From: Cuniculiplasma divulgatum
GTDB lineage: Archaea > Thermoplasmatota > Thermoplasmata > Thermoplasmatales > Thermoplasmataceae
Length of the DNA: 32,000 nt
Direction of reading: 5' to 3'
NCBI RefSeq assembly: GCF_900083515.1
Contig: NZ_LT671858.1
Coordinates: 840,001-872,000, forward strand
Shown here piece after piece: positions 3,981 to 32,000 of this stretch. Each line of letters begins with the position of its first letter. Positions within the stretch are counted from its first letter, which is position 1. Under the pieces are notes generated by a model. It saw only the letters and a list, made by a program, of their open reading frames with translations. It did not search any database and was not told the origin of the DNA. The position numbers were made by a program, and so were the translations under genes.

Positions 3981-3998
3981 ACGGCTTGGGAAATAGAA

Positions 3999-14881: not shown

Positions 14882-14889
14882 TTTATGTA
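14882..14889 (+). promoter_or_regulatory. TATA-like box (TTTATGTA) for tRNA-Leu(CAG)
   Basis: The box ends 26 nt upstream of the tRNA 5' end, which fits archaeal TATA-to-TSS spacing. Confidence 0.35.
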
Positions 14890-14914
14890 TTACAGATCAA
14901 TAACACTTTGTTTT

Positions 14915-14999: not shown

Positions 15000-15060
15000 T
15001 CTGATTATAAATAAAAATGTGAACATGAGTAGTTCTATATTATATTTAGAAATCTTATTA

Positions 15061-18000: not shown

Positions 18001-18225
18001 TGGAAAACCCTGGCCTACCAGCTGTGGTTTCTGTTTTAAAATAGCAAGCTGTGGTGAGGCATTAACATTCCATGCGAGACCACTGCGACTTGTGTTAGTA
18101 GTTGTTAGATTTTTGTAATTATATTTTGCATTATCTACAGAGGAAGTGCTGGATAAAGATATGACGGTAAATCCTGAAGCAATCATCAGGAATATAATTG
18201 AAATGACAACTAGTTTTCTGAACAT
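15061..18225 (-). CDS. Secreted S53 (sedolisin/kumamolisin-type) serine-carboxyl peptidase with a long C-terminal beta-rich region and TM anchor
   Basis: Signal peptide MFRKLVVISIIFLMIASGFTV. Sedolisin blocks IAIVDAFGDP, ETATDVEWFHAIAP, SMSWG, AASGDQG, PYVTSVGGT and GGTSLATP (catalytic Ser). C-terminal TM helix plus RGRRRRKK. Confidence 0.9.
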   Translation of the reverse strand: MFRKLVVISIIFLMIASGFTVISLSSTSSVDNAKYNYKNLTTTNTSRSGLAWNVNASPQLAILKQKPQLVGQGFPYNVSQIRQAYNLTGFYQNDTCGQGFTIAIVDAFGDPSLNYDLESFNSLYNLPTANISYYYPYGSPKNLNSSWSLETATDVEWFHAIAPRAHIDLIIVPNAEVGYLQGGVNDTINNISNVNGLSMSWGIAESSLSNGLMYTYNQAFLEANKKDIHIFAASGDQGAYDATKALTVNFPAGDPYVTSVGGTTLNYADGKYTQTSWSGSGGGYSTAFSAPNYQNATGFHGQSLGVPDISAVANPNDGGVTVFSRGNAITLGGTSLATPITAGSFILIDQDLHGKLGFINPLLFNLSRTNQYGKAIIPAVGGSNGYYTATYGWNPVTGLGSINAGLLAKDISQIYSYYGYSVTYGQINTSYVNFNTEVSMSPLTSASSQYISFAGLTIGSYGSTIRAGLCQIGNSIYESFKAGNYIYLRNLGTEKILSKKVVVQLKVDKLTITVGNTTKDLQVFPQSIYGTNASFIFEFSSGEGKPLNSGTASSSENVFNNGYLSVTQPVSGKPIYPFNETACSTLQIKNTSNSIEFSYNSSNPSGSFEKNSGAYPSIELNQSSPMFIYISNTGGNTVTLNGKIENSRTIQVNSGESLKIRFYRQLKMTFQFDIDLPSVSSLHLHFSYPADSNYSNNFTSIIDYTSNLRLNDTTGFSSLGSCTNLTTNSMGFRTNTSHFANSDTKVREQEIPVNLSFDISPIGAKLSLSNGSEILDHNGIIVYSVIPQFINFTIKSTKNGYKNTSGFLRLKPGFNVTYLPFSLGGNGNGYYLNGTVANGYYDAEYSITIPIASAKISYSDINASSDRFGYFSIWLPTGKDQVTTDARYFYSTKTNYTLEQNKVDQLILLQPNISSLLESALSITIDRLIPLFFFTSFISWSISFSSSTVSYYIVEYRTSGQLSWNKVRMSGHSNNIAFINGIYPDSKYYFKVIAVLDGGATVNSNVRTISYESPIYLFLNILIYMGILFYIYAMISYFRGRRRRKKLKDSFREW

Positions 18226-18275
18226 GATTTTCCCGTATTGGAAATTTTATTAATATATGTATCACTTTCTGTTTA

Positions 18276-19406
18276 TTGGACGAAAAAAAATTTTTGACTA
18301 AAAAATTCAGGGAATATTACTATCAGAATAAACAGGTATATACAGAACAGTTAAACAAAAGGGAAATCGGTTTCATACCATTCGAAGGAACAATGATTAG
18401 ACATAGAAAAGTTGAAGATTTACTGGATCTACAGAATTTTCTCATGGATAACATTCCAAGACATCTTTATCACTCTGTTGCTTACTACAAGTACCCTGAT
18501 AAAAGGTCAATGCAGGAAAAAGAGTGGAATGGGGCAGAATATGTATTTGATCTGGACGCAGACCACATTCCGGGTGCAGATCAAATGTCCTATGAACAGA
18601 TTCTAAGGGAAGTGAAAGATCACACCTTGAGGCTTTTGAATAAATTTCTTATTGGATATTTGGATTTAGATCCTGAGAGTCTTAATATTTATTTTTCGGG
18701 GGCAAGGGGTTACCACATTCATATAAAAAGTGATAAAATTTACCAGATGAACTCTGATCAGAGAAGGGAGATTTCTAATCTTGTCAGGGGAGAGGGCATA
18801 TCAATCAAATCCTTTTTAGGCATAGCATCGAAAACTCCCATTACTGGAAAAGGTTGGATATCAGATATAAACAGCGAATTGATAGATACACTTAACAAAA
18901 TCGCACAGGGGGAAAAAACGGAATATGTAGACAGAGTCGGGGAAGATAAGATAAAGCAGTTGCTTGATAGGACTATATCAGCAAAGGATAAGAGGAAGTA
19001 CAGACAAATCTATATGGAACAGGGGATTGAAAAGTACAGTAACACTAACATAAAAATGATTGAAAATCTACTTGAGAAAATTATAAGTGAATATGTTAAA
19101 AAAAATTCAGTAGAAATTGATGAACCCGTTTCAACTGATATTCATAGACTGATCAGGTTTCCATATAGCCTTCATGGAAAAACTGGGTTAATTGTAAGAA
19201 AAATAGATATAGATTCACTTAAAACATTCGAACCCCTGAGTGAGGCAATTCCAAATATATTTGGGGATGATCCGATCGGAGTAAGGATGAAAAAACCTTT
19301 TGAAATAAATTTCAATAGAATTCATTATAAATTAGAAGAGGAAGATACAGTTCCATCCAATCTGGCAATATTTTTATCTCTTTCTGGAAGAGCTAATATA
19401 TATTAA
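18276..19406 (+). CDS. priS: DNA primase small (catalytic) subunit PriS
   Basis: TTG start. AEP-primase motifs YVFDLDADH (DxD) and FSGARGYHIHI, plus VSTDIHRLIRFPYSLHGKTG. Confidence 0.9.
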   Translation: MDEKKFLTKKFREYYYQNKQVYTEQLNKREIGFIPFEGTMIRHRKVEDLLDLQNFLMDNIPRHLYHSVAYYKYPDKRSMQEKEWNGAEYVFDLDADHIPGADQMSYEQILREVKDHTLRLLNKFLIGYLDLDPESLNIYFSGARGYHIHIKSDKIYQMNSDQRREISNLVRGEGISIKSFLGIASKTPITGKGWISDINSELIDTLNKIAQGEKTEYVDRVGEDKIKQLLDRTISAKDKRKYRQIYMEQGIEKYSNTNIKMIENLLEKIISEYVKKNSVEIDEPVSTDIHRLIRFPYSLHGKTGLIVRKIDIDSLKTFEPLSEAIPNIFGDDPIGVRMKKPFEINFNRIHYKLEEEDTVPSNLAIFLSLSGRANIY

Positions 19407-19473
19407 TTATTATTTGATAGTAAATTAAAGAAAATTAAATATACGTAAACTCAATGTAGAAAACGGTGGAAAA

Positions 19474-19899
19474 ATGGAATTAAAAAATACCAAGACTTTA
19501 GAAAATTTGAAGGCAGGTTTTGCTGGAGAAAGTCAGGCTAACAGAAGATACCTTTATTTTGCCCTGAAGGCAGACGAAGAGGGACAGCAGGAAATAGCAC
19601 AGGTTTTTAGATCAACAGCAGACGGTGAGACTGCACATGCTTTCGGTCATCTTAAATATCTGGCACTCGTAGGGGACCCAGTAACCAACGAGCCAATTGG
19701 AACAACCGAGCAAAACCTAAAGTCAGCCATAGCTGGAGAAACATATGAATACAGTCAGATGTACCCCGGCTTTGCAAAGGATGCAAGAGAAGAGCATTTA
19801 GACGAAATCGCCCACTGGTTTGAAATACTATCGAAGGCCGAAAAATCACACGCAACAAAATATGAAAAGACTCTCGCCGAAATGAAGAAAAGCCAGTGA
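19474..19899 (+). CDS. Rubrerythrin-family diiron protein without a rubredoxin domain (sulerythrin-like)
   Basis: Four-helix diiron ligand motifs ESQANRRY, GETAHAFGH, GETYEY and AEKSHATKY. The 141 aa leave no room for a C-terminal CxxC rubredoxin module. Confidence 0.88.
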   Translation: MELKNTKTLENLKAGFAGESQANRRYLYFALKADEEGQQEIAQVFRSTADGETAHAFGHLKYLALVGDPVTNEPIGTTEQNLKSAIAGETYEYSQMYPGFAKDAREEHLDEIAHWFEILSKAEKSHATKYEKTLAEMKKSQ

Positions 19900-19904
19900 T
19901 TGGA

Positions 19905-20471
19905 ATGCAAAAAATTACTGAAGGGGAAATTATCCCCCCTGAAAAATTTTCAAAGATTTTAACAGAAGAAAGAAAAAAAATTATAGCAGTTAAAAGACAC
20001 AGAAGAATCGCAAGTAAAACTTTCAGTTATCTATTCGAAAACAGGGATACTGTATTGAATCAAATCAATGAAATGATACTTATTGAAAATGTTCACGATG
20101 CCAAAGAAAAAGATCATATTCTAAAAACCTATAATGAACTGATACCAGGAGATAAAGAATTCAGCGTTTCCATGTTCATAGAAATCAGCGATGAGAAAAA
20201 ATTATTAAAGGAGATGCCCAGACTGACAGGAATCGAAAACAATGTTTACCTGGTATTTGCAGATACTGAACTAAAGGGAATACCTGAAGAAGGAAGATCT
20301 ACAGCAACACTTGAGTCAACTTTGCAGTATTTGAAATTCAAATTTGATGAAAAGAAGGCTGAAAGCTTTAAGAAAACAAAAAACGCATTCGTTGTAACCA
20401 GGCACTCCATATATAAGGAAAGTGCTGAAATTAATGAAGAATTACTTTCAGACCTGAAAAAAGAACTTTAA
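19905..20471 (+). CDS. DUF3501-like protein
   Basis: MQKITEGEIIPPEKFSKILTEERKKIIAVKRHRRIASKTFSYLFENRDTVLNQINEMILIE resembles my recollection of the DUF3501 N-terminus. Immediately follows rubrerythrin. An alternative GTG at 19896 overlaps its stop. Confidence 0.55.
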   Translation: MQKITEGEIIPPEKFSKILTEERKKIIAVKRHRRIASKTFSYLFENRDTVLNQINEMILIENVHDAKEKDHILKTYNELIPGDKEFSVSMFIEISDEKKLLKEMPRLTGIENNVYLVFADTELKGIPEEGRSTATLESTLQYLKFKFDEKKAESFKKTKNAFVVTRHSIYKESAEINEELLSDLKKEL

Positions 20472-20489
20472 CCCTATTCATCTTATCTC

Positions 20490-20495
20490 TTTTTT
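20490..20495 (+). terminator. Oligo-T tract (T6) after the rubrerythrin/DUF3501 pair
   Basis: CTCTTTTTTAAAAA lies 19 nt after the stop codon. Confidence 0.3.
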
Positions 20496-20573
20496 AAAAA
20501 ACTATATAATGCCAGGCTCCATTAATATGTCGTTTCGGTAAATTTTAAATAGACTTGGAAATTATCAATTCCA

Positions 20574-21473
20574 ATGATAGATGTAAGTGGAGTGTTCTAT
20601 TCATACAAAAAGAACATAATCACATTAAAAAATATTACTAAGACTTTCGAACAGGGTAAGATATATGGAATTGTTGGTCCAAATGGCGCAGGGAAAACTA
20701 CACTTTTGAACGTGATGTCCGGGGTTCATACGCCAGGAGCTGGCAGAATTCTTGTAGATAGTTATGACATAGTAAATGATAGGGAAAAGTCCATCAAAAA
20801 AATAGGTCTAATGCCAGACGGCTCGTTTCTTGATCCTGATGAGAAGATAATAAACCAAATGATGCATTTTGGCTCATACTATGATTTATCTATAAAAGAG
20901 GCAAGAGAAAGAGCATTGAGTCTTATGAATAAATTTGGTCTTTCGGAGGAATTTTCAAGAAAATCCATGAGAAACCTGTCACTTGGGCAGAGAAGGAGAG
21001 TTGGATTGACAATGGCTCTTCTTCATGATCCGGATAACATCCTAATGGATGAACCGTACAATGGTTTTGATCCTTTCGGCATAAAGATGGTGACAGATAT
21101 AATGCTCGAAGCCAGAAATAGTGGTAAAACGGTCATAGTTTCATCCCACATACTTAAGGAGGTACAGTCAGTGGCAGACGAGTTTGTATATCTTGAAAAT
21201 GGACAGCTACTAAAATCAATAGATATAGAAACGATGTCAAAGAATATTGGTAAAATATGGGTAAAAGTTTTGAACCCGGACGATAATCTTTTAAGATTGC
21301 TTCAGACCTTTGGAACAGTCAGGAGGATTAACCAGGCATATGAAATTACAACACCATCGGATAATAAGGTTGAGACTTCTGAAATTAACAGTGCTCTTGT
21401 AAAGGAAAACTACAAAGTAGATTCAATCTATTATGAGAAAAGAACAGTTGAGGATGAATTTTTCTCAAAGTAA
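20574..21473 (+). CDS. ABC transporter ATP-binding protein (ABC-2 type) with an extra C-terminal domain of about 80 aa
   Basis: Walker A GPNGAGKTT, signature LSLGQRRRV, Walker B ILMDEP and H-loop SSHIL. Confidence 0.9.
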   Translation: MIDVSGVFYSYKKNIITLKNITKTFEQGKIYGIVGPNGAGKTTLLNVMSGVHTPGAGRILVDSYDIVNDREKSIKKIGLMPDGSFLDPDEKIINQMMHFGSYYDLSIKEARERALSLMNKFGLSEEFSRKSMRNLSLGQRRRVGLTMALLHDPDNILMDEPYNGFDPFGIKMVTDIMLEARNSGKTVIVSSHILKEVQSVADEFVYLENGQLLKSIDIETMSKNIGKIWVKVLNPDDNLLRLLQTFGTVRRINQAYEITTPSDNKVETSEINSALVKENYKVDSIYYEKRTVEDEFFSK

Positions 21474-21481
21474 TAGAATAG

Positions 21482-21553
21482 CAGGTCCACCGGGAATTGA
21501 ACCCGGATCATGGGCTCCGGAGGCCCATATGATATCCTTTACACCACGGACCT
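21482..21553 (-). tRNA. tRNA-Arg (anticodon CCG), A1-U72 first pair, no encoded CCA
   Basis: Hand fold of the reverse complement. Acceptor AGGTCCG/TGGACCT plus discriminator G. U8. D stem GTGT/TCAT (one G-U wobble, one U-U mismatch). Anticodon stem TGGGC/GCCCA with loop CTCCGGA. 4-nt variable loop. T arm CCGGG-TTCAATT-CCCGG. Confidence 0.85.
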
Positions 21554-22037
21554 ATCTTTTGTAGCCTATATTCCTAAGAAATTCTCTTCTCTTTCTTTTA
21601 TCTTCCTCTGTTTCAACTCCCAGGGGAGAAAATCCATCAATAACTCCAAGAATAGCTCCACCATTTTTACCTCTGAATACGATGGCAGAAATAGGATTAG
21701 CAGTTGCAGCAAAGACACTGCCTACTTCCTGGCAATTTTTTATGGCATTTAAAACAGTTATGGGAAACGCATCTCTTATTAATATGAGGAATGTGTGTCC
21801 GCATTTTAGATTTAAAATGTTTTTGATGCCAGTTTCTTCCAGTTCAGGATCGTTAGATTCAAATCTAACCAGTCTGTCTCCGGAAGCCTCTGAAAAGGTG
21901 ATGGAATAGGACGCTTTAGGGATGTATGTTTTTATGATTTCTTCCAGATCTTCCACAGTTTTTATGAAATGTGAATAACCTAGTATAAGGTTGCAACCCT
22001 TTGGATTTTCCAGATCAACTACGTCAATGTTTTCCAT
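21552..22037 (-). CDS. Adenosine-specific kinase family protein (PF04008 / PAE2307-like)
   Basis: 161 aa with LILGYSHFIKTVEDL, SEASGDRLVR, NAIKNCQEV, ATANP and GVIDGFSPLGVETEEDKRKRREFLRNIGYK, which match my recollection of this conserved archaeal family. Confidence 0.7.
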   Translation of the reverse strand: MENIDVVDLENPKGCNLILGYSHFIKTVEDLEEIIKTYIPKASYSITFSEASGDRLVRFESNDPELEETGIKNILNLKCGHTFLILIRDAFPITVLNAIKNCQEVGSVFAATANPISAIVFRGKNGGAILGVIDGFSPLGVETEEDKRKRREFLRNIGYKR

Positions 22038-22085
22038 AGCTTACAATGCAATTATAATCTTAATATTTTTCTAAATTGTATATTG

Positions 22086-22748
22086 TTAGTTGAGAAGTTT
22101 TAAGACTATACTTCCGTAAATTATAAGCACAAATACAACAAGGATATCAAGCAATGAATCCGGTACTATATACACCAGCATTAAAAGTCCGATGAAAAGT
22201 GCGGAAGTTGGTTCTTTTCTGTAATAATCACTCAACGTTGAGATTATACTTGTCATGTTTCTTATTAAACCTTTCCTGTTAAGATTAATAAGAATCACTG
22301 AAACATATGCCACTATGGTAAAGAGTGCGCTAATGTAACCACCCACAAATGGGATATAGGCAAAAACTAGTGAAATAAATGAAATAAATGCGGCAATGAG
22401 AAATATTTCACCCTTTGATGATAGAGAATCTGAAAGTGATGTCCTTATGGAAAAAGAGCCCTTATCAACGAGATCTGAGACTGAGAAAGTTTGCCAGAAT
22501 ATAGCAAGAACAAGGAAAAAATCAATTATTATATTCCCAATAAAGTCCACAAGAAATAAATCAACATGATAAAGTGGATGAGCGGTCTTTAAATAAACCG
22601 ATGTTATATCAAACTCACTGGCGTCCACTAAAACAGCAAACACAGCCAAAATTATGTAACCAAATATAAAAGGTAAAACTATGGATGGTTCCTTTTCAAT
22701 GAAATCCATTGCCTTCTTCAGTGAATAAGATTCATCAGGCATATTCAA
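22086..22748 (-). CDS. Integral membrane protein, function unknown
   Basis: 220 aa with five or six hydrophobic helices. No motif recognised. Confidence 0.6.
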   Translation of the reverse strand: MNMPDESYSLKKAMDFIEKEPSIVLPFIFGYIILAVFAVLVDASEFDITSVYLKTAHPLYHVDLFLVDFIGNIIIDFFLVLAIFWQTFSVSDLVDKGSFSIRTSLSDSLSSKGEIFLIAAFISFISLVFAYIPFVGGYISALFTIVAYVSVILINLNRKGLIRNMTSIISTLSDYYRKEPTSALFIGLLMLVYIVPDSLLDILVVFVLIIYGSIVLKLLN

Positions 22749-22875
22749 CTACATTTTGATCTTTGATATATATTTTTATACAAATTTTTCCATTTTTCCC
22801 ATAATTATCTAAATAATATATTCATATAGATAATAAGTTAGGATAATTTTTTAAACTATTTCGCATAACAAGGTA

Positions 22876-23922
22876 GTGGATAAAGATTTTGATTATGAGA
22901 CCGTAGTCATAGGTGCTGGCACGGGTGGTCTGTCAGCTGGTTGTATATTAAAAAATCAAAAGAGGGATTATGTAATTCTTGATAAGAAGGAGGAGATAGG
23001 CTTACCGGTAAGGTCTACGGGAGCAGTATCGCTGGAATGGGTAAAAAAAATTGGCATGCCAACAGCAAAAGAAATAGTCGCTTCTAACATTTATAATATG
23101 TCATTCAGAACGGAAAAAGGTAAGAGAATTGATCTAAACTTTGATCATCCAGTAGGAATGGTCTATGATTTCACCAAATACGAGAAATACCTTTCCTCAG
23201 GTTTTGCAGGAAAGCTTAACATTAAGATGAAAACAACAGTTAGTGAAGTTAAGGGGAATCAGATTAAAACAAATGATGGTATTTTAACAGCAAAAAACGT
23301 TATTATGGCAGCTGGACCACAATCAAATCTAGGTTCCAAACTCACGAAAACACAAGCGCTTGTGGCATATGAGGAAACAAGGGAGCTTGATGAAAGAAAG
23401 GACTTTCAAATGATACTCTGGTTTAGTGATCTTGCCCCAGGTGGATATTTTTGGGATTTTGCTGACTCAAAAAATACCAGAAAAATTGGAGTTTGTTATT
23501 ATCCTCTTAGTGGTGAGGCACCAAAAAGTGTACTAAAAAAATTTACAGAAAAATTTCCAGAGCTTGATGGCGAAATAGTTCACACAATGGCACATCAGAT
23601 CCCGCTGACAAAACCTTCTGATCAGGTTGTCAGAGAAAATCAGCTTTGGGTGGGAGATATGGTTAATGCAGTCCTTAACACAACGGCGGGGGGTTTGCAG
23701 GGCGCATTTTGGTCCGGAAAGGAAGCAGCTATCGCAACTGTAAACAATGATCTACAACAATATCAGAAAGTATGGGATAATCAGATAAAACCATGGCTAA
23801 TGAAGCATAATGAATTGCATTCCAGAATTCATGCAAGGGGTGAGAGAAGCGTTGGAACATATATCACGCTGGCAAAACTCATGCCAAAGAAGATTAAGAT
23901 GAGAGTTTTCGGTGGCTTGTAA
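22876..23922 (+). CDS. FAD-dependent oxidoreductase, geranylgeranyl-reductase family
   Basis: GTG start. Dinucleotide-binding VVIGAGTGGLSAG...ILDKKEE, plus the later GDMVN and GGLQGAFWSG motifs typical of GGR-like flavoproteins. Confidence 0.75.
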   Translation: MDKDFDYETVVIGAGTGGLSAGCILKNQKRDYVILDKKEEIGLPVRSTGAVSLEWVKKIGMPTAKEIVASNIYNMSFRTEKGKRIDLNFDHPVGMVYDFTKYEKYLSSGFAGKLNIKMKTTVSEVKGNQIKTNDGILTAKNVIMAAGPQSNLGSKLTKTQALVAYEETRELDERKDFQMILWFSDLAPGGYFWDFADSKNTRKIGVCYYPLSGEAPKSVLKKFTEKFPELDGEIVHTMAHQIPLTKPSDQVVRENQLWVGDMVNAVLNTTAGGLQGAFWSGKEAAIATVNNDLQQYQKVWDNQIKPWLMKHNELHSRIHARGERSVGTYITLAKLMPKKIKMRVFGGL

Positions 23923-24014
23923 TTTAATATAACCAAATTACTTTTTTAATTTTCGCTATTAATAATAGAATTGTAATGGAAAAGTAGCTTTCCTAATTAG
24001 GACTTAAAAGAATG

Positions 24015-24022
24015 TTTATAAG
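24015..24022 (+). promoter_or_regulatory. TATA-like box (TTTATAAG) for the alcohol dehydrogenase gene; spacing suggests a leaderless mRNA
   Basis: The box ends 22 nt before the ATG at 24044. Confidence 0.3.
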
Positions 24023-24043
24023 TAATTTCGATATTTTGAAGGT

Positions 24044-25090
24044 ATGGAAGCAAAAGGATATGCAGCAGGAGAAGCAGGAGGAAAATTATCACCATATAAC
24101 TTCGAGAGAAGAGAACTTGGTGAAAAAGATGTCTTAATTGACATAAAATACTGTGGAATTTGTCATTCAGACATTCATCAGGTCAATAATGATTGGGGAG
24201 GAGCTTCATACCCCATGGTGCCTGGACATGAGATAGTTGGAATTGTAAGAAATGTTGGCAGTGGTGTAAAAAAGTTCAAGCAGGGAGATAGGGTTGGTGT
24301 TGGTTGCATGGTTGATTCGTGTGGACAATGTGGACCATGCAAGAGTGGACTACAGCAGTATTGTGAAAATGGTGCAACATTTACCTACAGTTCAAAGGAC
24401 AAAGTAAGTGGGGGTGTTACCTATGGTGGGTACTCCGATAAGATTGTGGTCGTTGAGGATTTTGTTCTTAAAGTTTCTGAGAAACTAGATTTTGCGGCCA
24501 CTGCTCCCCTATTGTGTGCAGGAATTACAACATATTCTCCACTGAAACACTGGAATGTGAAAGCCGGTCAAACAGTAGGCGTGGCAGGATTAGGAGGGCT
24601 TGGTCATATGGCAGTCAAGTTAGCCAAATCAATGGGTGCAAATGTTGTTGTAATGACGACATCTGAGAAGAAAAAGGATGAGGCAAAGAGACTTGGAGCA
24701 GATAAAGTGATTATATCCAAAAATATAGAAGAAATGAAGAAAAACAGGATGTCGATGGATCTGATAATAGATACAATCCCGGCGCCACATGATATGAATC
24801 TTTATATTTCACTTTTGAAAATTGATGGAAGCATAGTTCTTGTCGGATTACCGGAAAAGGAATCTCAACATGTTATATCTGCGGGATCGCTTATCAATGG
24901 AAGAAGGTCAATTAGTGGATCAAATATAGGCGGTATAGAAGAAACTCAGGAAATGTTAGATTATTGTGATAAGCATAATATTGTTTCTGACATAGAACTC
25001 ATACCCATGTCAAAAGTCAATGAGGCATATGTAAGAACAGTTAATTCAGATGTCAAATATAGATTCGTTATCGACATGAGTACATTATAA
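24044..25090 (+). CDS. Zinc-dependent NAD(P) alcohol dehydrogenase (cinnamyl-ADH / YahK-like)
   Basis: CGICHSD and GHEIVG catalytic-Zn ligands. Structural-Zn cluster CGQCGPCKSGLQQYC. Rossmann GVAGLGGLGH. Confidence 0.9.
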   Translation: MEAKGYAAGEAGGKLSPYNFERRELGEKDVLIDIKYCGICHSDIHQVNNDWGGASYPMVPGHEIVGIVRNVGSGVKKFKQGDRVGVGCMVDSCGQCGPCKSGLQQYCENGATFTYSSKDKVSGGVTYGGYSDKIVVVEDFVLKVSEKLDFAATAPLLCAGITTYSPLKHWNVKAGQTVGVAGLGGLGHMAVKLAKSMGANVVVMTTSEKKKDEAKRLGADKVIISKNIEEMKKNRMSMDLIIDTIPAPHDMNLYISLLKIDGSIVLVGLPEKESQHVISAGSLINGRRSISGSNIGGIEETQEMLDYCDKHNIVSDIELIPMSKVNEAYVRTVNSDVKYRFVIDMSTL

Positions 25091-25135
25091 TCATTTCATT
25101 TTCCATAATTTTGAAACCGTTCTTATAAAGAAAGG

Positions 25136-25143
25136 TAAATATG
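25136..25143 (+). promoter_or_regulatory. TATA-like box (TAAATATG) for tRNA-Cys
   Basis: The box ends 25 nt upstream of the tRNA 5' end. Confidence 0.35.
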
Positions 25144-25167
25144 CAATATTCTATTACGGAATTTTAT

Positions 25168-25239
25168 GGATAGGTGGCAGAGAGGTTATGCGTAAGACTG
25201 CAGATCTTATTTATTAGGGTTCAAATCCCTACCTATCCT
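25168..25239 (+). tRNA. tRNA-Cys (anticodon GCA), discriminator U73, no encoded CCA; integration target of the downstream element
   Basis: Hand fold. Acceptor GGATAGG/CCTATCC plus T. Anticodon stem TAAGA/TCTTA with loop CTGCAGA. Variable loop TTTAT. T arm TAGGG-TTCAAAT-CCCTA. Confidence 0.9.
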
Positions 25240-25240
25240 C

Positions 25241-25280
25241 TACCAGAGATGGTACAATAATTATTATACCATAGATGGAT
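25241..25280 (+). repeat. Two direct repeats TACCA(G/T)AGATGG (25241-25252 and 25267-25278) bracketing a TTATTATA box just upstream of int
   Basis: 11/12 identical, 26-bp period. They lie between the tRNA 3' end and the int ATG at 25289. Confidence 0.5.
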
Positions 25281-25288
25281 ATGCAAGC

Positions 25289-26578
25289 ATGAACCCATTA
25301 ACAAGACATAGAAAACTGCTGGAAAATAAGAAGGTTGAAAGATGGTATTCGAATCTGAAAGCAAGATCTCAAATCACTTCTGACACTTATATTCGAAATT
25401 TTGGGCTGTGGTTGGAGTATCTAAATCTCGATCCTGATTCTATTATTTCTATGGCGAGGGATAACTTTGACGAATTTAAAGGGGCAGTTTCGGATGTTAT
25501 AAGGGATTTAGAGAAAAAAGGTACTATGGGATCTTCTATATCTACAAGTCTTAAAGCTGTTTTATCCTACCTTAAGTTCAATAACGCATCTGTTAAATTA
25601 GGAATAAATATTACTAATGAAAACCGCAATCTGAAGGCAGAAAAGGAAGTTATTCCTACGAAAGATGAAATTGCTAAGGTCCTGAGGATAGCAACCTTAA
25701 GGGAGAGAGTTTCGATTTCTCTTATGGCATTTACAGGGTTAAGACCCGAAGTCCTAGGGAATATAGACGGTACCAATGGCCTAACGATAGGAGACATTCC
25801 AGATCTAAAGATCAAAGATGGAAAAATAGTCTACGAACACATGCCAGTTCAAATAAGCGTTAGGCCAGAGCTGTCTAAAATTAGAACCGCATATTTTACG
25901 TTTCTTGGTCCGGAGGGATCTGAATACCTTAAAGAATACCTTGATGCACGAATGACTTCAGGCGAAAGACTTACGACAAAATCCCCTGTAATATTACCTA
26001 TAGAAAAGCAGTCATCAGAGAAAAAGAATCGGTTTTTACTTACTACATTGCTTCTAAGAAGGATTAAGAAAACAATCGCTAAGGCGGGTTTTGAATGGAG
26101 ACCATATATTTTTAGAATATACTTTGGGACTAACCTTGATAGCGCTGAGGCAAAAGGACTTATTTCACATCCATGGCGTCAGTTCATTATGGGGCATAAG
26201 GGAGACATTGAGGAAACATATACAAAGAGGGAGGGAAAGGTCGACGAGGGAAGAGAGCAGTATTCAAAATGCCTTAGCTTCATAGAGACTGTTGAACATA
26301 GCAAATCGCAAGGAGATATTAAGAAAAGTGTTATGGTTGAAATTCTTTCTCTGGTCCTTGGATATACTCAAGACAAGATAGACCAACTAGACTTAGATAA
26401 AATGAGCAATGAGGACTTTCAAAACCTAATTAAAAAAGGACTTCTCGGAAATATGACTGGTAATGGAACAAGGCAAAAGATCGTTAGTGAAAAAGAAATA
26501 GAGCAATACATGAATCAGGGATATGAGGTTTTTACAACTCTTCCATCTGGTAAAATAGTTATGAAACTCTCTTTATGA
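25289..26578 (+). CDS. Tyrosine recombinase / integrase (intact, non-partitioning type)
   Basis: Catalytic-type residues in order: R in MAFTGLRPEV, H-x-x-R in HPWRQFIMGH, and Y in IEETYTKREG. Located next to a tRNA 3' end. About 115 aa continue after the presumed catalytic Tyr. Confidence 0.85.
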   Translation: MNPLTRHRKLLENKKVERWYSNLKARSQITSDTYIRNFGLWLEYLNLDPDSIISMARDNFDEFKGAVSDVIRDLEKKGTMGSSISTSLKAVLSYLKFNNASVKLGINITNENRNLKAEKEVIPTKDEIAKVLRIATLRERVSISLMAFTGLRPEVLGNIDGTNGLTIGDIPDLKIKDGKIVYEHMPVQISVRPELSKIRTAYFTFLGPEGSEYLKEYLDARMTSGERLTTKSPVILPIEKQSSEKKNRFLLTTLLLRRIKKTIAKAGFEWRPYIFRIYFGTNLDSAEAKGLISHPWRQFIMGHKGDIEETYTKREGKVDEGREQYSKCLSFIETVEHSKSQGDIKKSVMVEILSLVLGYTQDKIDQLDLDKMSNEDFQNLIKKGLLGNMTGNGTRQKIVSEKEIEQYMNQGYEVFTTLPSGKIVMKLSL

Positions 26579-26767
26579 TTCATTCTTTATTTTAGTCCTT
26601 ATCTTATCGCCCTTTCACACTAAGACAATATAATTACATTAAGAAGTTTTAGCAGTTCTTCAAACAAAGTAGATGAAGGCAATATTTTTAAAAAAATAAG
26701 TAGATGGATTCATTTTAATTATAATACCTAAGGCATCATGAATTTATATTAAGATCATGGCCAAGAA

Positions 26768-26794
26768 GATCTCATGGATCCTTACCATGAGATC
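26768..26794. repeat. Perfect 10-bp inverted repeat GATCTCATGG / CCATGAGATC with a 7-nt loop
   Basis: Read directly from the sequence, about 190 nt downstream of int. Confidence 0.6.
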
Positions 26795-26820
26795 CTTATA
26801 ATTCACTCAGATCCTTTTTA

Positions 26821-26929
26821 AATGCATGTAACATGTCAGTGATATAGGCTTTCGATGAAAGTATCGGGAAATACAGGTTTCCTTTCGGTGTGCCTTTCGG
26901 TGTTCTTTCGATGGTTCATGTTATGCATT
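26821..26929. repeat. Iteron-like cassette: four copies of CTTTCG(A/G)TG flanked by an imperfect inverted repeat
   Basis: Copies at 26849-26857, 26882-26890, 26894-26902 and 26905-26913. The last three are tandem with an 11-12-bp period. Flanks are AATGCATGTAACATG (26821-26835) and CATGTTATGCATT (26917-26929). Confidence 0.7.
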
Positions 26930-27016
26930 ATATTTTTACTCTTTACCTGGAAGAATCAGGGCTTCTTCCAGAGAAAAAACAAAAATTTAGAGCGCCTTTA
27001 TATCTATATATGCCCA

Positions 27017-27030
27017 GGGGGAGGGGGGGG
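27017..27030. other. G5-A-G8 homopurine tract
   Basis: GGGGGAGGGGGGGG read directly, in an otherwise AT-rich noncoding region. Confidence 0.8.
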
Positions 27031-27170
27031 TCATTCCATGGTAATGGCTAATTCAGATTGGTATCAATTCTATCAGCCCTAAGAGTCATGGTTAATTAAT
27101 AATAGGGTTCGCCGCCACCACCACATGTGATTTTACTGAATTTATTCTTTAATTTACGAGATTTATAACA

Positions 27171-27195
27171 ATGTCATGCCAATGTAACATGACAT
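27171..27195. repeat. 8-bp inverted repeat ATGTCATG / CATGACAT with a 9-nt spacer
   Basis: Read directly. The same ATGACA(T/C) core recurs as the tandem ATGACATTTTT / ATGACACTTTT at 27470-27493. Confidence 0.55.
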
Positions 27196-27551
27196 ATAAC
27201 ATGAGATTACGCATTACAGATATGCTGAATATTCCGGTAATTCTGCGAATACAGATTAACATTACAAAATTACTGTACTCAATCATTTCTGAATATACCC
27301 TCATTCTATGAGAAGGACCATATAGCAATAACAAAGCCTATGGTTCAGCCTTGGGAAATGATCGGGTTTCATCTTATGTAATACGCCCGTTGAATTAATT
27401 AAGGGAGGGGACCCCCATACTAGGGATATTTGAGATATTGCTTCCCTATGCCCAATTTCAGGCAACATAATGACATTTTTAGATGACACTTTTAAAAATT
27501 ATATCCTTATTTGGGAAGTTTCCAGGAATATAATAGCACGGCTGACCCGGC

Positions 27552-27794
27552 TTAGTCCTCATCCGTAACGGCATGCTCTATGGCCAGTTTGTACCTGTAA
27601 ACTCTGCATCCCCTTTCCCTGGTTACAAGTCCCATTCTAGTCATGTTGATCAGGGCCCTGGACACACTATAACTGGGTACATCCATGCCCCTGCCTTCCA
27701 GGTAGTAACGGATCTGTTCGGTTGTCTTGCTCCTCTTGGTTAGTGATTCAAGGATCAGCTCCTCCATGTCACTTAACCTGATCTCTATCTTCAT
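27552..27794 (-). CDS. Small winged-helix DNA-binding protein (element-encoded regulator)
   Basis: Trimmed to MKIEIRLSDMEELILESLTKRSKTTEQIRYYLEGRGMDVPSYSVSRALINMTRMGLVTRERGCRVYRYKL, an 80-aa wHTH pattern. Last gene of the operon. Confidence 0.6.
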   Translation of the reverse strand: MKIEIRLSDMEELILESLTKRSKTTEQIRYYLEGRGMDVPSYSVSRALINMTRMGLVTRERGCRVYRYKLAIEHAVTDED

Positions 27795-27801
27795 GGTCCA
27801 T

Positions 27802-27984
27802 CTATTTCCTTCTGGATGGTTTGCCTCTCCTGGATATGGAACTAACAGCAGCTGCAACCATGAGAATAAAACCCAATGCACCAAGCAACAATGGAATAAA
27901 AGGATATTCAGGCAACATGCCCTTTACGTCCAGGAAGAATGAAACCAGAATGATTAATAGGCCTGTTACAAAGAGCTTAATCAT
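27802..27984 (-). CDS. 60-aa two-TM membrane peptide with a basic C-terminal tail
   Basis: Two hydrophobic helices (LFVTGLLIILVSFFL and FIPLLLGALGFILMVAAAV), then SRRGKPSRRK. The ATG overlaps the upstream TGA (ATGA). Confidence 0.5.
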   Translation of the reverse strand: MIKLFVTGLLIILVSFFLDVKGMLPEYPFIPLLLGALGFILMVAAAVSSISRRGKPSRRK

Positions 27985-28292
27985 TCTGCAGCTCCCTCCC
28001 TTTCCTCATCATCCCATGGATCTGAGGGTATTTCTCCTGGATCGTCAGGCAGATATGGTTCATCGATTCCTGGCTCCTTATCCCATGGTCTTCCTGGAAG
28101 ATCCCTTTCAGGTCCAGGAAACATGTGATCTGTTTTGTTGATTATAGTCCTTGTATTGAATATGCGATTTACCACTCTGTTTTTAACCATCTTCAAATTA
28201 GGTAATATAATTACACTGGAAAGGTTAAGCATACCTTCAAAGGTAGTAGTTGAAGGTATCATTTTGAAAGAATCAAAGTAGATGGCTTCCAT
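27981..28292 (-). CDS. Hypothetical protein with a Pro/Asp/Glu-rich C-terminus
   Basis: 103-aa ORF in the operon frame chain. It starts 1 nt after the stop of the upstream ORF. Confidence 0.45.
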   Translation of the reverse strand: MEAIYFDSFKMIPSTTTFEGMLNLSSVIILPNLKMVKNRVVNRIFNTRTIINKTDHMFPGPERDLPGRPWDKEPGIDEPYLPDDPGEIPSDPWDDEEREGAAE

Positions 28293-28293
28293 T

Positions 28294-28800
28294 TTAGATC
28301 ATCTCCCTGTATCGTTTCAGTGCATCGGATCTCTTCATGCCTTCCTCTTTCATCCTTCTTCTCTGTTGCATGGTAATCTCGGGATGTCCTTTTAGCCATG
28401 ATTCTTCCCTTTCCCTGTAGAGCGATTCTATAACATTTTGTCCCTTTCGTTCAACACTTCCTGGTATGTCAGGATCAATTCCCTGGATTCCCTTCTTTAC
28501 GACAATATCCCGGTTAAGCATCTCATATGTAAAGTAACCCTCAGATCCTTTTTTTGAGATCTTCCTCTGAGTTACAACAACATTGTGATCCTTAAACTTG
28601 GAGCTGCTGCATACATCCTCATTCGAATACCATGATCTGTGTTTGGCATTGGGATCCATGGGGCATATGGGAGCTGCACATCTTTCATAAAGGGGACATG
28701 CCTTAAAGGGTGTTTCTTCCTTATTCTGCAGCCTCTCGATAAATGATCTAACCTTTTCCTGGTCATCCTGGCTAAGCATGTATTCTGAAAGGGTTATCAT
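28294..28800 (-). CDS. Cys-rich hypothetical protein
   Basis: 168 aa. Cluster CPLYERCAAPICPMD...C suggests metal binding. ATGA overlap with the upstream ORF. Confidence 0.5.
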   Translation of the reverse strand: MITLSEYMLSQDDQEKVRSFIERLQNKEETPFKACPLYERCAAPICPMDPNAKHRSWYSNEDVCSSSKFKDHNVVVTQRKISKKGSEGYFTYEMLNRDIVVKKGIQGIDPDIPGSVERKGQNVIESLYREREESWLKGHPEITMQQRRRMKEEGMKRSDALKRYREMI

Positions 28801-29021
28801 TGAACCGCCTCCTTTGTTTCCCTCATTTCTGCATACATTCTCTGTACCATTTCCTGAACCTCTGGAAGTGTCCAGGAAAATTTCGCATGTGTGCAGCTGA
28901 TGGAAGAATCAAGAACACAATACATTCTTATGATTCCATCCTGATCCGGCGCTGCCTCTACGGGATAGGGTGTTTTCCCTTCCCTGACTATTATACATTT
29001 TGTTTTGATTTCAGATTGCAT
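28797..29021 (-). CDS. Hypothetical 74-aa protein
   Basis: GAGGTGA Shine-Dalgarno 6-7 nt upstream of the ATG at 29021. Its stop overlaps the next start. Confidence 0.45.
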   Translation of the reverse strand: MQSEIKTKCIIVREGKTPYPVEAAPDQDGIIRMYCVLDSSISCTHAKFSWTLPEVQEMVQRMYAEMRETKEAVQ

Positions 29022-29128
29022 TTTAGTTCACCTCATCTCTGAATATTTTGTTTCCAGCCCATACAATGACCCTTATAATGTAATAAGTAAGTCCGTTGTC
29101 CAGGATCCTTCTTATTGTTTCTATTCCG

Positions 29129-29446
29129 TTATTGCTCATTTTCAACTGAAACCACCTCCATCTTTGATCCGCATTCATCACAGTACTTCGCTCCTGGAAG
29201 GTTGTAATTTGAACACTCCTTGCAGATCCTCTTTAAAGCACTGCTCCGTTCAATCCTTATCTGTTCATTTCTCATTGCATAAACTATGTGAAAACAACTG
29301 TAAGAATTGCAAATCTCACAATGTAAGAGTCTTAGTTCCGGATCTAAAATTAAAGATCCCGTTCTTCCTGTATCGTTTTCATGCAGCGTGCAGATCACTA
29401 TTTCCTTTCTTTCTTCCACTTTCAGTTTTCCATTTTCCATTTTCAT
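29129..29446 (-). CDS. Zinc-ribbon protein
   Basis: Trimmed to the ATG at 29446, which has AAGGAGGT 3 nt upstream. Motifs CEICNSYSC and CKEC-x10-CDEC. Confidence 0.55.
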   Translation of the reverse strand: MKMENGKLKVEERKEIVICTLHENDTGRTGSLILDPELRLLHCEICNSYSCFHIVYAMRNEQIRIERSSALKRICKECSNYNLPGAKYCDECGSKMEVVSVENEQ

Positions 29447-29453
29447 TACCTCC

Positions 29454-29708
29454 TTAGATCTCCCTGAATACCAGGTAAAGTGATTCCTCATCCTCTATGC
29501 TTATCATGGTTAGGGATAATCCTCTTGTTTCAAACTCGGAAAGAAGTATTCTGAATATGCCTCCTGGCAATCCAGCATCATCAACTCCCTGTTTGTATTC
29601 CACATCTATTTCCTCATCCGTTCCTTGCTTGACCTCCAGTCCCCATCCATAAAGATGGAATATGCTGTCAGCCACTTTTTTCAAACTTTCTATACTCTGT
29701 TCATTCAT
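29454..29708 (-). CDS. Hypothetical 84-aa acidic protein
   Basis: Part of the operon chain, with an 8-nt overlap with the upstream ORF. Confidence 0.45.
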   Translation of the reverse strand: MNEQSIESLKKVADSIFHLYGWGLEVKQGTDEEIDVEYKQGVDDAGLPGGIFRILLSEFETRGLSLTMISIEDEESLYLVFREI

Positions 29709-29982
29709 TCTCTATCACTTCCTCTTTGGAGCATAAGGCCGCCCCTATGCCATCCTGTAAAAATTTTAGGATCTTAAAATCTGAGTCAAGCTCAGCTATA
29801 GATATCACTTTATCAAGTGGTATTCTATGGGTTCTTCCTGACTTCAACCCGTCAATTATAATTCTACTGAATGCGATTCTCTGAAACTCTCCTGTAAGTT
29901 TGTATGGTGCGTTCTTTGGTCCTATGTAATTTACACTTACAGTTGATCCCTGAAGATCCTTCCATGACATCTGAAGGATCAC
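29701..29982 (-). CDS. Hypothetical 93-aa protein
   Basis: GTG start at 29982 overlaps the TGA of the 670-aa ORF and has AAGGAGG 9 nt upstream. An alternative ATG lies at 29970. Confidence 0.45.
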   Translation of the reverse strand: MILQMSWKDLQGSTVSVNYIGPKNAPYKLTGEFQRIAFSRIIIDGLKSGRTHRIPLDKVISIAELDSDFKILKFLQDGIGAALCSKEEVIENE

Positions 29983-31991
29983 TGTTGATCGCCTCCTTTC
30001 AGTGGCCTGCTAAAAAAGACATTTGCCTCGCTTCCTTTATTGCCCCTTGTAAACCCTAGATCTTTCATCAGTCGATCGACGGTTTCACTGTTCTGGCGGT
30101 AGTATGCTCTCGGGATCGCTATGTTGAATTTATCCCCGTAGATGGAAACGCCGGTATCAGATGCGTTAAGATGAACTCCATGCTCTAGTAATAAATTGAC
30201 CGATTCTTCTCCCTGTTCTTTAGTTAGAGGTAATCCATGGAGTGGTTCTTGATTCAGGTTCCTTTCGTCATTATTAGAGTTTTCATTCTGGACGTCGGGT
30301 TTTAAAGGGTCTCCTTGCAGGTCTGGACTAAGAGGACGAAGAGGACTATCATTTTGGAAGGGGGGTAACTGATCATTCTCCTTTTTTGATTGCTGAGGCT
30401 TTGATTTATTGGCTTTAATATCGTTTTTGCTGTTACTTTGAGTGTGGGGGCTTCCTTTCTCATCGTCCTCATCGTCCTCATCGTCCAAGATTGACTGCTG
30501 AGCCTGTTCTATACTGGATAATTTGGCAAGAACAAATTCAGTGTCATATCTCGATCTCAATTCACTGATCTTTTTTTCATCAGGGATCTTTACCACAGTG
30601 TAACGTTTTGTGTAGTCCTGATCGTTACCATCGTTTCCTTTCCTAGTCCTTGTTATTCTCGGTCTGTCTGTTTTTAGGCCTAATGCAGATAATATCTTCC
30701 CTGCCTGTTTCGCGTAATCCCTTCCAATTTCATCATAAATTGCGCTAAGATATATTCCGGTATAGCTTCTTCCTCCTATACTGTACTGAGCAGTGGCCTC
30801 AGGAGAGTCCATTAGCGTCAGGACTTCATTGGCGATAATCCCGTTAGGAGTTTCAGCTGCAACCTGTGCATTCCTTAGTATCTGAGATTTAAGCACGTCC
30901 CCTATTTCCGATTTTAGTTCAGGTATGATCTCAAGAAGATCCTCAAAAAATGAAATAACCTCAAAAAGCCTTGGTTCTGTATGAGACTCATACAATTTCA
31001 AAAAATTGCTTCCCTTGATTTCGTTTATTTTATCGTGCCATTTTACCTTGAAATTAAGGAGCATGCCCCTGATTCTTCTGGCATCTCCGGTAAATTGATC
31101 CAGCGTTTTTCCTTTGATTTTCCTAGGTACATCTTCTCTGGCAAGTTCAAAGTCCATGTTTATTTGAAAGCTCTTTGATTCGATGGCATCATCCCTGAAC
31201 GGTGTCCTCCCGGCAAGAACCAACGGCCCAAAGATTCTATAACCTATTATAGCTGAGAATCCCTGCTGGATTTCATTATTTGCGTTGAGTACTAAGGCGT
31301 TCGCGTTATATTTTCCGTTGAGTATGGCAGCTAAGTCATTGTCCATCTGCCCTTTTTCATCCACGAAGAGAGGCGCACCGTACAGGTCAGAAATTCGCTT
31401 AAGAGCAGCTGATTTTATGTCAATAGAATAAAAGCCAAAAGGCGTTATCTCGCATGTTGTCGTTAGCAGTCTGGATTTTCCTTTACCGTAAGGCGCCAAT
31501 ATGTGAATAAAAGGAAAAGATGTATCCTTTAACGCATCAAATATCGCAGCCTTCATTACATATAGAGAAAGAATTATCTCATCCTCCGGTTTCAATTCCA
31601 TGAAAGTGTGAATAAATGCTTTTATTTCGCAATATAGTGCATATTCGCTCTCATATTCAACTGGAGCGGGAGGGAATTTAACAGATTCGAACCTATCTTC
31701 CTTTAGTATCCGATCACGTTTTGTTTGAGCTATCTGCGGAGCAGGCAATATAGTGATTTCTGAATTTTCAGAATCAGGATCCGGAATTTTTACTTCCGGC
31801 ACAACTTCCGTTTGTCCGTTCTTATATTTCAAAAACAACAACGATCCCTTTTCGTCGGTGAACTCACAATAGTGCCAGCCACCGTGAGAAAATCGTGTTT
31901 TGTATAGTTTTTGTTTCTCTTTGTTATCCTGGTCATTTTTCACTGCATCTCTTAGGTCTTTTCCATCTTTTTTAGTCCTATCGTTTGCCAT
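29979..31991 (-). CDS. P-loop NTPase, putative element replication / helicase-like protein (DUF3631-like core)
   Basis: Walker A LAPYGKGKSRLL and Walker B APLFVDEKG about 35 aa later. Then AAILNGKYNAN...FGPLVLAGRTPFRDDAIESKSFQINM, resembling the core of primase-associated NTPases of mobile elements. Acidic linker DDEDDEDDE. About 90-aa C-terminal domain. Confidence 0.6.
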   Translation of the reverse strand: MANDRTKKDGKDLRDAVKNDQDNKEKQKLYKTRFSHGGWHYCEFTDEKGSLLFLKYKNGQTEVVPEVKIPDPDSENSEITILPAPQIAQTKRDRILKEDRFESVKFPPAPVEYESEYALYCEIKAFIHTFMELKPEDEIILSLYVMKAAIFDALKDTSFPFIHILAPYGKGKSRLLTTTCEITPFGFYSIDIKSAALKRISDLYGAPLFVDEKGQMDNDLAAILNGKYNANALVLNANNEIQQGFSAIIGYRIFGPLVLAGRTPFRDDAIESKSFQINMDFELAREDVPRKIKGKTLDQFTGDARRIRGMLLNFKVKWHDKINEIKGSNFLKLYESHTEPRLFEVISFFEDLLEIIPELKSEIGDVLKSQILRNAQVAAETPNGIIANEVLTLMDSPEATAQYSIGGRSYTGIYLSAIYDEIGRDYAKQAGKILSALGLKTDRPRITRTRKGNDGNDQDYTKRYTVVKIPDEKKISELRSRYDTEFVLAKLSSIEQAQQSILDDEDDEDDEKGSPHTQSNSKNDIKANKSKPQQSKKENDQLPPFQNDSPLRPLSPDLQGDPLKPDVQNENSNNDERNLNQEPLHGLPLTKEQGEESVNLLLEHGVHLNASDTGVSIYGDKFNIAIPRAYYRQNSETVDRLMKDLGFTRGNKGSEANVFFSRPLKGGDQQ

Positions 31992-32000
31992 CGCTTATTT

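Follow-up and report, generated by a model that had tools for sequence, protein, structure and literature searches.

A probable integrative cryptic plasmid with a pRN1-like split replicase at the tRNA-Cys gene of Cuniculiplasma divulgatum

We analysed a 32,000-nt stretch of the Cuniculiplasma divulgatum genome (NZ_LT671858.1, 840,001–872,000; assembly GCF_900083515.1), hereafter the window, and give all coordinates as window positions. Segment 25228–32000 is very probably the left part of an active integrative cryptic plasmid, which is inserted at the host tRNA-Cys(GCA) gene and carries a pRN1-like replicase split into two genes. An initial annotation, made from the letters of the window, had described a plasmid- or provirus-like element at this tRNA gene and left its class open; the locus was correct, and the class can now be given as plasmid, on the basis of a replication module found without viral or conjugative hallmarks. 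The plasmid is undescribed, yet it is a familiar kind of element, with the biology to be expected of one and no new principle. The host flank agrees with the earlier attribution to a Thermoplasmatales-like lineage, since positions 14044–25245 match C. divulgatum PM4 (LT719092.1), CP133596.1 and several metagenome-assembled genomes (MAGs) from acid environments at 99.5–100% identity.

Related loci were collected by exact lookup of the 670-amino-acid (aa) protein encoded by the element, which returned 13 public contigs, together with contigs carrying the flanking alcohol dehydrogenase gene or the integrase. All four attachment (att) sites are represented. The empty site, attB, is found in seven Cuniculiplasma genomes or MAGs (L012, L013, L015–L018 and L020), with flanks at least 99.5% identical to the window, and reads ...GGGTTCAAATC-CCTACCTATCCT-T-TACCA-ATTAGTATC.... 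In the window and in L011, attL consists of the left side of attB followed by CCTACCTATCCT-C-TACCA-GAGATGGTAC.... The circular junction, attP, was observed in two independent assemblies (L003 and L004) as ...TTTGGTAGTGGATA-CCTACCTATCCT-C-TACCA-GAGATGGTAC..., while attR, combining the left side of attP with the right side of attB, is present in four metagenome contigs (L005–L008). The duplicated att sequence, the empty tRNA-Cys site and the circular excision junction that the initial annotation had proposed to look for are therefore all found in public contigs. Integrated, excised and absent forms of the element are all present in nature, the excised form being read from the attP contigs.

The four att sites have in common an 18-bp core, CCTACCTATCCT(C/T)TACCA, which occupies 25228–25245 and appears in the window as the attL core CCTACCTATCCT-C-TACCA; the duplicated segment had been expected to be the whole 3′ half of the tRNA gene (about 25195–25245) and is shorter than that. 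attL and attP are homologous from precisely CCTACC (25228) onwards, attL and attB up to 25245. The layout of attP is ACCATCTTTGGTAGTGGATA-CCTACC-TATCCTCTACCAGAGATGGT, that is, two 20-bp arms forming an inverted repeat at 18 of 20 positions around a 6-bp spacer. Inverted arms around a short spacer are the classical layout of a tyrosine-recombinase core site. Judged from sequence, the arms TATCCTCTACCAGAGATGGT and ACCATCTTTGGTAGTGGATA are the presumed core-binding sites of the integrase, the element-side arm TATCCTCTACCAGAGATGGT lying at 25234–25253 as read from attP in L003 and L004, and the overlap is predicted to be the 6-bp CCTACC at 25228–25233. Position 25240 (core position 13, seven bases to the right of the spacer) is C in the element and T in the host. 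This marker segregates with the arms, attR carrying T in L005, L007 and L008, which places the crossover to the left of 25240, in or next to CCTACC. The exception is L006, whose attR (around position 176 of that contig) has the element-type C at core position 13 and so does not fit a simple crossover to the left of it; this could stem from polymorphism in the host, from repair of a heteroduplex or from exchange at another point. The crossover segment forms the last 12 nt of the tRNA-Cys gene (plus strand, 25168–25240 by ARAGORN or 25168–25239 by Rfam RF00005, 61.6 bits), which is identical to the tRNA at the empty sites: the gene stays intact, and its sequence is unchanged after integration.

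The complete element measures 9,267 bp, made up of window positions 25228–32000 (its left 6,773 bp) joined to the colinear remainder in L004, which is 100% identical to the window over 29883–32000; six contigs agree on this structure. The right boundary, rightly placed outside the window by the initial annotation, is predicted from the colinear contigs to lie about 2.5 kb beyond 32000, where the attR of the window copy should read ...GGTAGTGGATA-CCTACCTATCCT-T-TACCAATTAG and start approximately 2,495 bp past the window end. Of ten homologous loci sampled, not one has this element and seven are unoccupied, a pattern indicating that it is mobile and uncommon rather than fixed. The exact integrase sequence occurs on a single 1.9-kb public contig. 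An exact-pattern scan of JGI metagenome contigs for attP and attR gave no matches, even though JGI contigs with attR exist in another index.

The integrase gene (plus strand, 25289–26578) is an intact open reading frame (ORF) of 429 codons that starts 49 nt past the tRNA, as had been annotated. Its conserved motifs and predicted fold identify the product as a divergent tyrosine recombinase, with a C-terminal extension of about 110 aa. Residues R152, Y273, R276, H303 and Y311, corresponding to the catalytic R...(H/Y)xxR...H...Y of tyrosine recombinases, are invariant among 37 homologs. The family profile matched P. abyssi XerA in the PDB with a marginal E-value of 0.026, GLRPE and RPYxxR aligning to the R and HxxR boxes, and PF00589 is reached by 4 of the 37 family members, the window integrase itself staying under the Pfam threshold. 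When searched as single sequences against the PDB, neither this protein nor the 670-aa protein gave a match. The AlphaFold2 (AF2) model of the integrase (pLDDT 80) has XerA, phage integrases, IntI, lambda Int and Cre as its top Foldseek matches (3.8e-7 and weaker). More than 580 cluster representatives at 90% identity make up the family; those listed come from Thermoplasmata-type MAGs and metagenomes, and some members are labelled 'site-specific integrase' by NCBI. The gene remains intact when the element is integrated, int beginning at 25289, beyond the core end at 25245, and the full 429-aa ORF is present both in the window and in the circular L004. The element belongs to the tRNA-targeting, non-partitioning (pNOB8-type) integrase class, showing each of the four features examined for it, with attR and attP read from public contigs; an SSV-type integrase gene, unlike this one, is split on integration.

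The second pillar of the assignment is the replication module. The minus-strand operon had been counted as nine genes, but it does not end with the window: in public contigs that carry an identical 670-aa gene it extends beyond 32000 to a 338-aa Prim-Pol gene and a 57-aa gene (p57), which stand at its start, ahead of the 670-aa gene. Beyond these lie a ribbon-helix-helix (RHH) gene and a divergent gene of about 306–328 aa. Within the window, the Prim-Pol gene is represented by its final 23 nt (minus strand, 31978–32000) and overlaps the start of the 670-aa gene (minus strand, 29979–31991) by 14 nt. Its product (L004 2929–3945) scores 84 bits (2.1e-23) with PF09250, whose cut-off is 22.8, and the DxD, GGTH and D motifs are visible. 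The 52-aa RHH protein encoded upstream matches PF21983 (CopG/NikA-like) at 3.9e-8, and for the divergent gene that adjoins it just three homologs exist, which is not enough to predict a structure usefully.

The 670-aa protein is a putative replicative helicase with an SF3 (superfamily 3)/D5-like AAA+ P-loop fold. Walker A (G169–K172) and Walker B (D211, E212) are invariant, and the chain divides into an N-terminal beta domain, the ATPase core (approximately 160–280), a winged-helix-like region, a disordered acidic linker (502–583) and a small C-terminal domain. Foldseek searches of the PDB with its AF2 model (pLDDT 75) returned solely replicative hexameric helicases, namely MCM, the NrS-1 C-terminal region, poxvirus D5/E5, PriRep1, African swine fever virus (ASFV) PrimPol and bovine papillomavirus (BPV) E1, and phage primase-helicases were matched in BFVD; these fold matches have a probability of about 1, with low TM-scores (0.2–0.36) and 10–14% identity. 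An exhaustive profile search found 2,555 cluster representatives (50% identity) at E ≤ 1e-3. Relatives of about 1000 aa are Prim-Pol fusions (P0089 with PF09250), and four of eight remote relatives scanned have a Prim-Pol domain at the N terminus, accompanied by PriCT-1 in two of the four and by a DnaG-type Zn ribbon in one; one more of the eight carries an NrS-1-type HBD and one a primase-large-subunit-like domain. Prim-Pol domains are found in the remote relatives P0236, P0265 and P0319. Since Prim-Pol stands beside a D5/SF3-like helicase here and is fused to it in relatives, the module probably represents a replicase of the pRN1 ORF904 type that is split into two overlapping genes.

Relatives of the helicase were detected in six species-representative genomes, all of them Thermoplasmata and including 'I-plasma', and att repeats were found for two of the six (L024 and L027) as well as for a near-identical copy, L001. 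What recurs across related elements is the helicase, usually Prim-Pol, p57, an integrase and a 168-aa protein (p168; minus strand, 28294–28800); the other small ORFs do not. In L024, from another Thermoplasmatota species, an 8.48-kb element (7642–16138) sits at tRNA-Cys with the same core inverted relative to int, so that the integrase is distal to the tRNA. The L027 element spans 6.1 kb at tRNA-Gly. L001 (7452–16696) is a 9,227-bp element in tRNA-Phe(GAA), delimited by 18-bp repeats at 7452 and 16679. It has a 6.2-kb backbone 97.9% identical to that of the window element, while a contiguous block of about 3.05 kb, comprising the Prim-Pol N-terminus, p57, the regulator, the ~330-aa gene, attP and int, has been replaced; its integrase, unrelated to that of the window, is a canonical member of PF00589 and carries a double zinc ribbon at the C terminus. 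Helicase homologs of about 50% identity were also observed in Micrarchaeaceae-binned (ARMAN-type) MAGs (P0069, P0073 and P0074; L028), and in the one context examined, L028, no Prim-Pol or integrase gene was called. Given that Micrarchaeaceae are episymbionts of Cuniculiplasma (PMC5498576), these homologs could reflect cross-lineage spread or mis-binning.

We assign the element to plasmids because it combines Prim-Pol, an SF3/D5-like helicase and an RHH protein in a replication module and because no viral or conjugative hallmark was found. The family scans agree with the initial annotation in detecting no capsid, conjugation or Cas1 hallmark. Capsid, packaging and virion hallmarks are missing among all ORFs in Pfam, PHROGs and NCBIfam, tools that are blind to unrecognised capsid types. 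Conjugation genes (a VirB4/TraG-type ATPase or a pore complex) were likewise not found: the sole P-loop protein is the helicase, the sole membrane protein has 60 aa, and the element totals 9.3 kb. No relaxase is present, the NikA-like match concerning the RHH fold only. A casposon was rejected, as no Cas1 match was obtained in Pfam or NCBIfam and the ends are direct repeats of the tRNA 3′ end. PLSDB and INPHARED contained no match to the window element DNA (25228–32000), the helicase or the integrase, and a scan of IMG/VR with the helicase profile found no relatives.

Several points weigh against reading the element as an active plasmid with a pRN1-like replicase. Its right end is read from contigs of other samples that are 98–100% identical, the attR of the window copy lying outside the window. 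The attP contigs could alternatively represent tandem integrated copies or mixed-strain assembly, the evidence being at the level of contigs. The helicase call draws on fold matches with TM-scores of 0.2–0.36 and on the domain-fusion context, and the protein has no matching sequence family in Pfam, NCBIfam, PHROGs or the PDB, nor an SF3 family. Neither an origin nor a copy-control RNA nor a partition system could be recognised. Finally, a function can be assigned to only about half of the genes, and the others are compatible with a helper-dependent or particle-forming life style.

The best-surviving alternative, which we nonetheless regard as improbable, is that the element is a helper-dependent satellite or vesicle-borne plasmid, spreading in the particles of an unseen Cuniculiplasma virus or in membrane vesicles. 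Plasmids pSSVx and pSSVi spread this way with fuselloviruses, and the size of the element and its Prim-Pol/helicase replicon resemble such pRN-type satellites. Near-identical copies turn up in samples of several projects (ENA, Logan and JGI contigs) although the element itself carries no transfer genes, and its backbone has passed from one integration module to another. A helper virus is not known, however, and no gene shared with any virus was found. Moreover, clonal dispersal of the host, whose genomes are >98.7% identical worldwide (PMC5155288), explains the spread equally well.

Slightly less probable still is a small temperate virus, present here as a provirus, with a capsid built from unrecognised small proteins. 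The 60-aa protein (minus strand, 27802–27984), in which a hydropathy scan identified two hydrophobic segments predicted to be helices, would be one example, and several other ORFs lack homologs of known function. Major capsid proteins of spindle-shaped archaeal viruses are similarly small and hydrophobic, and since viruses of Thermoplasmatales are, to our knowledge, essentially unknown, hallmark genes could be missed. Several observations speak against a provirus. No large protein for structure, adsorption or a spike is encoded, nor is a packaging ATPase. Related elements keep the helicase, p57, p168 and int but not the 60-aa gene or most of the small ORFs, and neither IMG/VR nor INPHARED contains relatives of the helicase family. 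In addition, every spindle-shaped or pleomorphic archaeal virus known to us that has its own replicase and integrase is larger than 9.3 kb. An immobile, decaying genomic island, that is, a domesticated remnant, is scarcely credible: a decayed gene fragment in the non-coding spacer and the conserved genomic islands described in Cuniculiplasma by Golyshina et al. 2016 (PMC5155288) would suit it, but all genes including int are intact, most sampled homologous loci are empty, attP junctions occur in two assemblies and the same backbone is found at tRNA-Phe.

For the integrative plasmid that we favour, the following mechanism can be proposed. The 429-aa recombinase would bind the two 20-bp inverted arms around CCTACC in attP and catalyse strand exchange with the tRNA gene, whose 3′ end contains the identical sequence; as the element supplies identical terminal nucleotides, the tRNA would stay intact. 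The excised circle would replicate autonomously through the p57/Prim-Pol/helicase operon, with the RHH protein and a protein of the winged helix-turn-helix (wHTH) type probably controlling copy number and transcription, and the 973-bp non-coding spacer between int and the operon (26579–27551) could serve as origin.

This spacer had been annotated as a 0.97-kb ORF-poor repeat region. It is indeed ORF-poor, with 16–30 stop codons per frame in all frames and no gene called there in the 98%-identical L001, but it is only weakly repetitive. The repeats are modest and comprise a 10-bp perfect inverted repeat at 26768–26794, a 12-nt unit present about 2.8 times at 26881–26913 and an imperfect 27-nt inverted repeat at 26929–26989; positions 26627–26716 derive from the 5′ end of the 103-aa gene, as a duplicate that has decayed and been frameshifted. 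The spacer DNA has no similarity in distant relatives, and no conserved origin motif can therefore be derived from it. We infer that it is the best candidate for a replication origin, or else a regulatory region. On the other side of int, between the att core and the int start, lies a near-perfect palindrome found by repeat search, ATGGTACAATAATTATTATACCAT (25249–25272), a candidate operator or promoter element. An Rfam scan of 25000–32000 returned the tRNA as its sole match, and scans for sigma-70 promoters and terminators remained at the level of shuffled sequence, with models ill-suited to archaea.

Among known systems, the closest comparison is with the pRN family (pRN1, pRN2, pHEN7 and pDL10, and the integrated pXQ1). 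These too are small cryptic archaeal plasmids, of 5–10 kb, with a replicase of Prim-Pol (PF09250) and P-loop helicase and a small RHH (CopG-like) regulator upstream, and some members reportedly integrate in tRNA genes. There are also several differences. Prim-Pol (338 aa) and helicase (670 aa) are separate overlapping genes here rather than one RepA, whereas pRN1 ORF904 combines both activities (PMC2777425); no similarity to PLSDB plasmids was detected (tblastn with the helicase, blastn with 25228–32000); no protein like PlrA (ORF80) was recognised in general Pfam and NCBIfam scans, in which no dedicated PlrA profile was used; and the host is a euryarchaeal acidophile, not a crenarchaeon.

The element also resembles the cryptic integrated elements (CIE) of Thaumarchaeota (Krupovic et al. 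2019, PMC6563490), which target tRNA genes, encode an integrase and a primpol plus superfamily-3 helicase (AEP + S3H), wHTH and RHH regulators and many ORFans, lack viral and conjugative hallmarks and have a size range into which the present element falls. It differs from them in belonging to another phylum, in showing no sequence relationship, and in that attP and attB states are documented here, as they are not for most CIE.

The integrative plasmids of Thermococcales (pTN3, the pT26-2 family and TKV elements) are larger (approximately 18–38 kb), have other replication proteins and mostly encode SSV-type 'suicidal' integrases that are disrupted on integration. They are nonetheless like the present element in being euryarchaeal, in occurring both free and tRNA-integrated by means of a tyrosine recombinase and in exchanging modules (PMC6972569, PMC2926602); no sequence similarity to them was detected. 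The helicase on its own finds its best structural matches in vaccinia D5/mpox E5, phage NrS-1 gp28, PriRep1 and ASFV C962R, which share the pairing of a primase-polymerase with a hexameric AAA+ helicase; these proteins share neither the N- and C-terminal domains nor the long acidic linker that the 670-aa protein has. In the literature on Cuniculiplasma and on genomic islands of acidophiles, as far as it is searchable (PMC5155288, PMC12302457, PMC10354927), the element is not described, and no Cuniculiplasma plasmid is described in searchable literature or in plasmid and phage collections.

The remaining genes of the operon are small. The minus-strand gene train from 27552 to 31991 consists of genes that abut or overlap, and has a G+C content of 41% compared with 36% for the host part. 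Three ATGA start/stop overlaps had been annotated; those at 27981–27984 and 28797–28800 are as described, while the one at 29979–29982 is GTGA. The strong GGAGG ribosome-binding sites that were reported correspond to GGAGG-like sites 5′ of p93, the Zn-ribbon gene, p168 and the two-segment 60-aa gene. The products named at the outset (a wHTH, a two-transmembrane peptide, Zn-ribbon or Cys-rich proteins and a P-loop protein) are borne out by weak Pfam matches, hydropathy and the invariant Walker motifs, with better starts now assigned to the wHTH and Zn-ribbon genes. The further claim of almost entirely unrecognisable genes went too far, given that the integrase, helicase, Prim-Pol, RHH and wHTH proteins can be assigned; it holds for the small ORFs and the ~306–328-aa gene.

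The wHTH protein (80 aa; minus strand, 27552–27794) has its ATG at 27794 in an ORF that is open to 27884; its Pfam matches are weak (DUF5817_CT 9e-4, HTH_27 0.01, MarR_2 0.04), and an 80-aa gene is also called in L001. The 60-aa gene is preceded by a GGGAGGGA site, and its product has no family match in Pfam, PHROGs or NCBIfam. Next comes the 103-aa acidic protein (minus strand, 27981–28292), with a weak match in L024 and a 39-nt deletion in the L001 variant. Four invariant cysteines (C35, C41, C46 and C64) characterise p168, which is conserved beside the helicase in distant relatives, as judged from the alignment and from tblastn (34–38% identity in L027 and L030–L032); it has no Pfam, PDB or PADLOC match, and a three-sequence profile found nothing in the PDB. 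A 74-aa protein (minus strand, 28797–29021), whose ORF takes part in an ATGA overlap, is also called as a gene in L001. The Cys-rich Zn-ribbon protein (103 aa; minus strand, 29129–29440) starts with an ATG at 29440 behind a AAGGAGGT site and matches Zn_Ribbon_1 (1.3e-4) and DZR (2.2e-4) below the gathering score. An 84-aa acidic protein (p84; minus strand, 29454–29708) and a 93-aa protein (p93; minus strand, 29701–29982), the GTG start of which overlaps the helicase stop codon, complete the set. Pfam, PHROGs, NCBIfam and PADLOC yielded nothing usable for the small ORFs, nor for the ~328-aa and 335-aa genes. Between the window element and L001 we counted 25 synonymous and 30 non-synonymous codon differences, too few to judge single small ORFs; the Zn-ribbon gene is the most variable gene between variants, with 16 differing codons. 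The Zn-ribbon/p84 region (29099–29585) is the most variable part of the element, and L003 and L005 lose homology there.

Other elements use the tRNA-Cys core as well. In PM4 (L014 11185–21047, LT719092.1) and in L021, a larger and different element occupies the site, its far end lying beyond the 10-kb flank; it encodes a 439-aa integrase 47% identical to that of the window, a 618-aa ORF, a DDE transposase and many ORFans, and is without a homolog of the 670-aa helicase. L019 (11185–15662; GCA_027367175.1, DAICVD010000004.1) contains a 4.47-kb tRNA-Cys island between two CCTACCTATCCT cores, which has no integrase and carries genes for two radical-SAM proteins and an MFS transporter; its left junction is that of the PM4-type element. 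The MAG of L019 also carries the plasmid variant L001 at tRNA-Phe. Elsewhere in the window, three large minus-strand ORFs of 372, 496 and 391 aa, none with a significant Pfam match (the first has a C-terminal Zn-ribbon match below threshold), end beside tRNA-Leu(CAA) at 3999–4083, with a DNA methylase (4323–5354) next to them; this region, 74–5354, may be a second island or a defence locus. A 1054-aa ORF without a Pfam match (15061–18225), located between tRNA-Leu(CAG) and the primase small-subunit gene, is conserved in all Cuniculiplasma loci examined.

The annotation gains in that names can now be given to two protein families, one of helicases that Pfam does not cover and one of divergent integrases. 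A more speculative prospect, which we consider unlikely, is that the element is a minimal particle- or vesicle-transmitted replicon of Thermoplasmatales, be it a virus satellite or a tiny temperate virus, with the 60-aa protein and p168 among the mediators of packaging or export; if true, it would offer a first handle on the virosphere of cell-wall-less acidophilic archaea. We know of no genetic tools for Thermoplasmatales acidophiles, and a small, delimited element with an attP/attB pair, an intact integrase and a self-contained replicase is a practical start for an integrative or shuttle vector. Lastly, the 98%-identical backbone that is found with an unrelated integrase block at tRNA-Phe instead of tRNA-Cys provides a clean natural case of modular retargeting.

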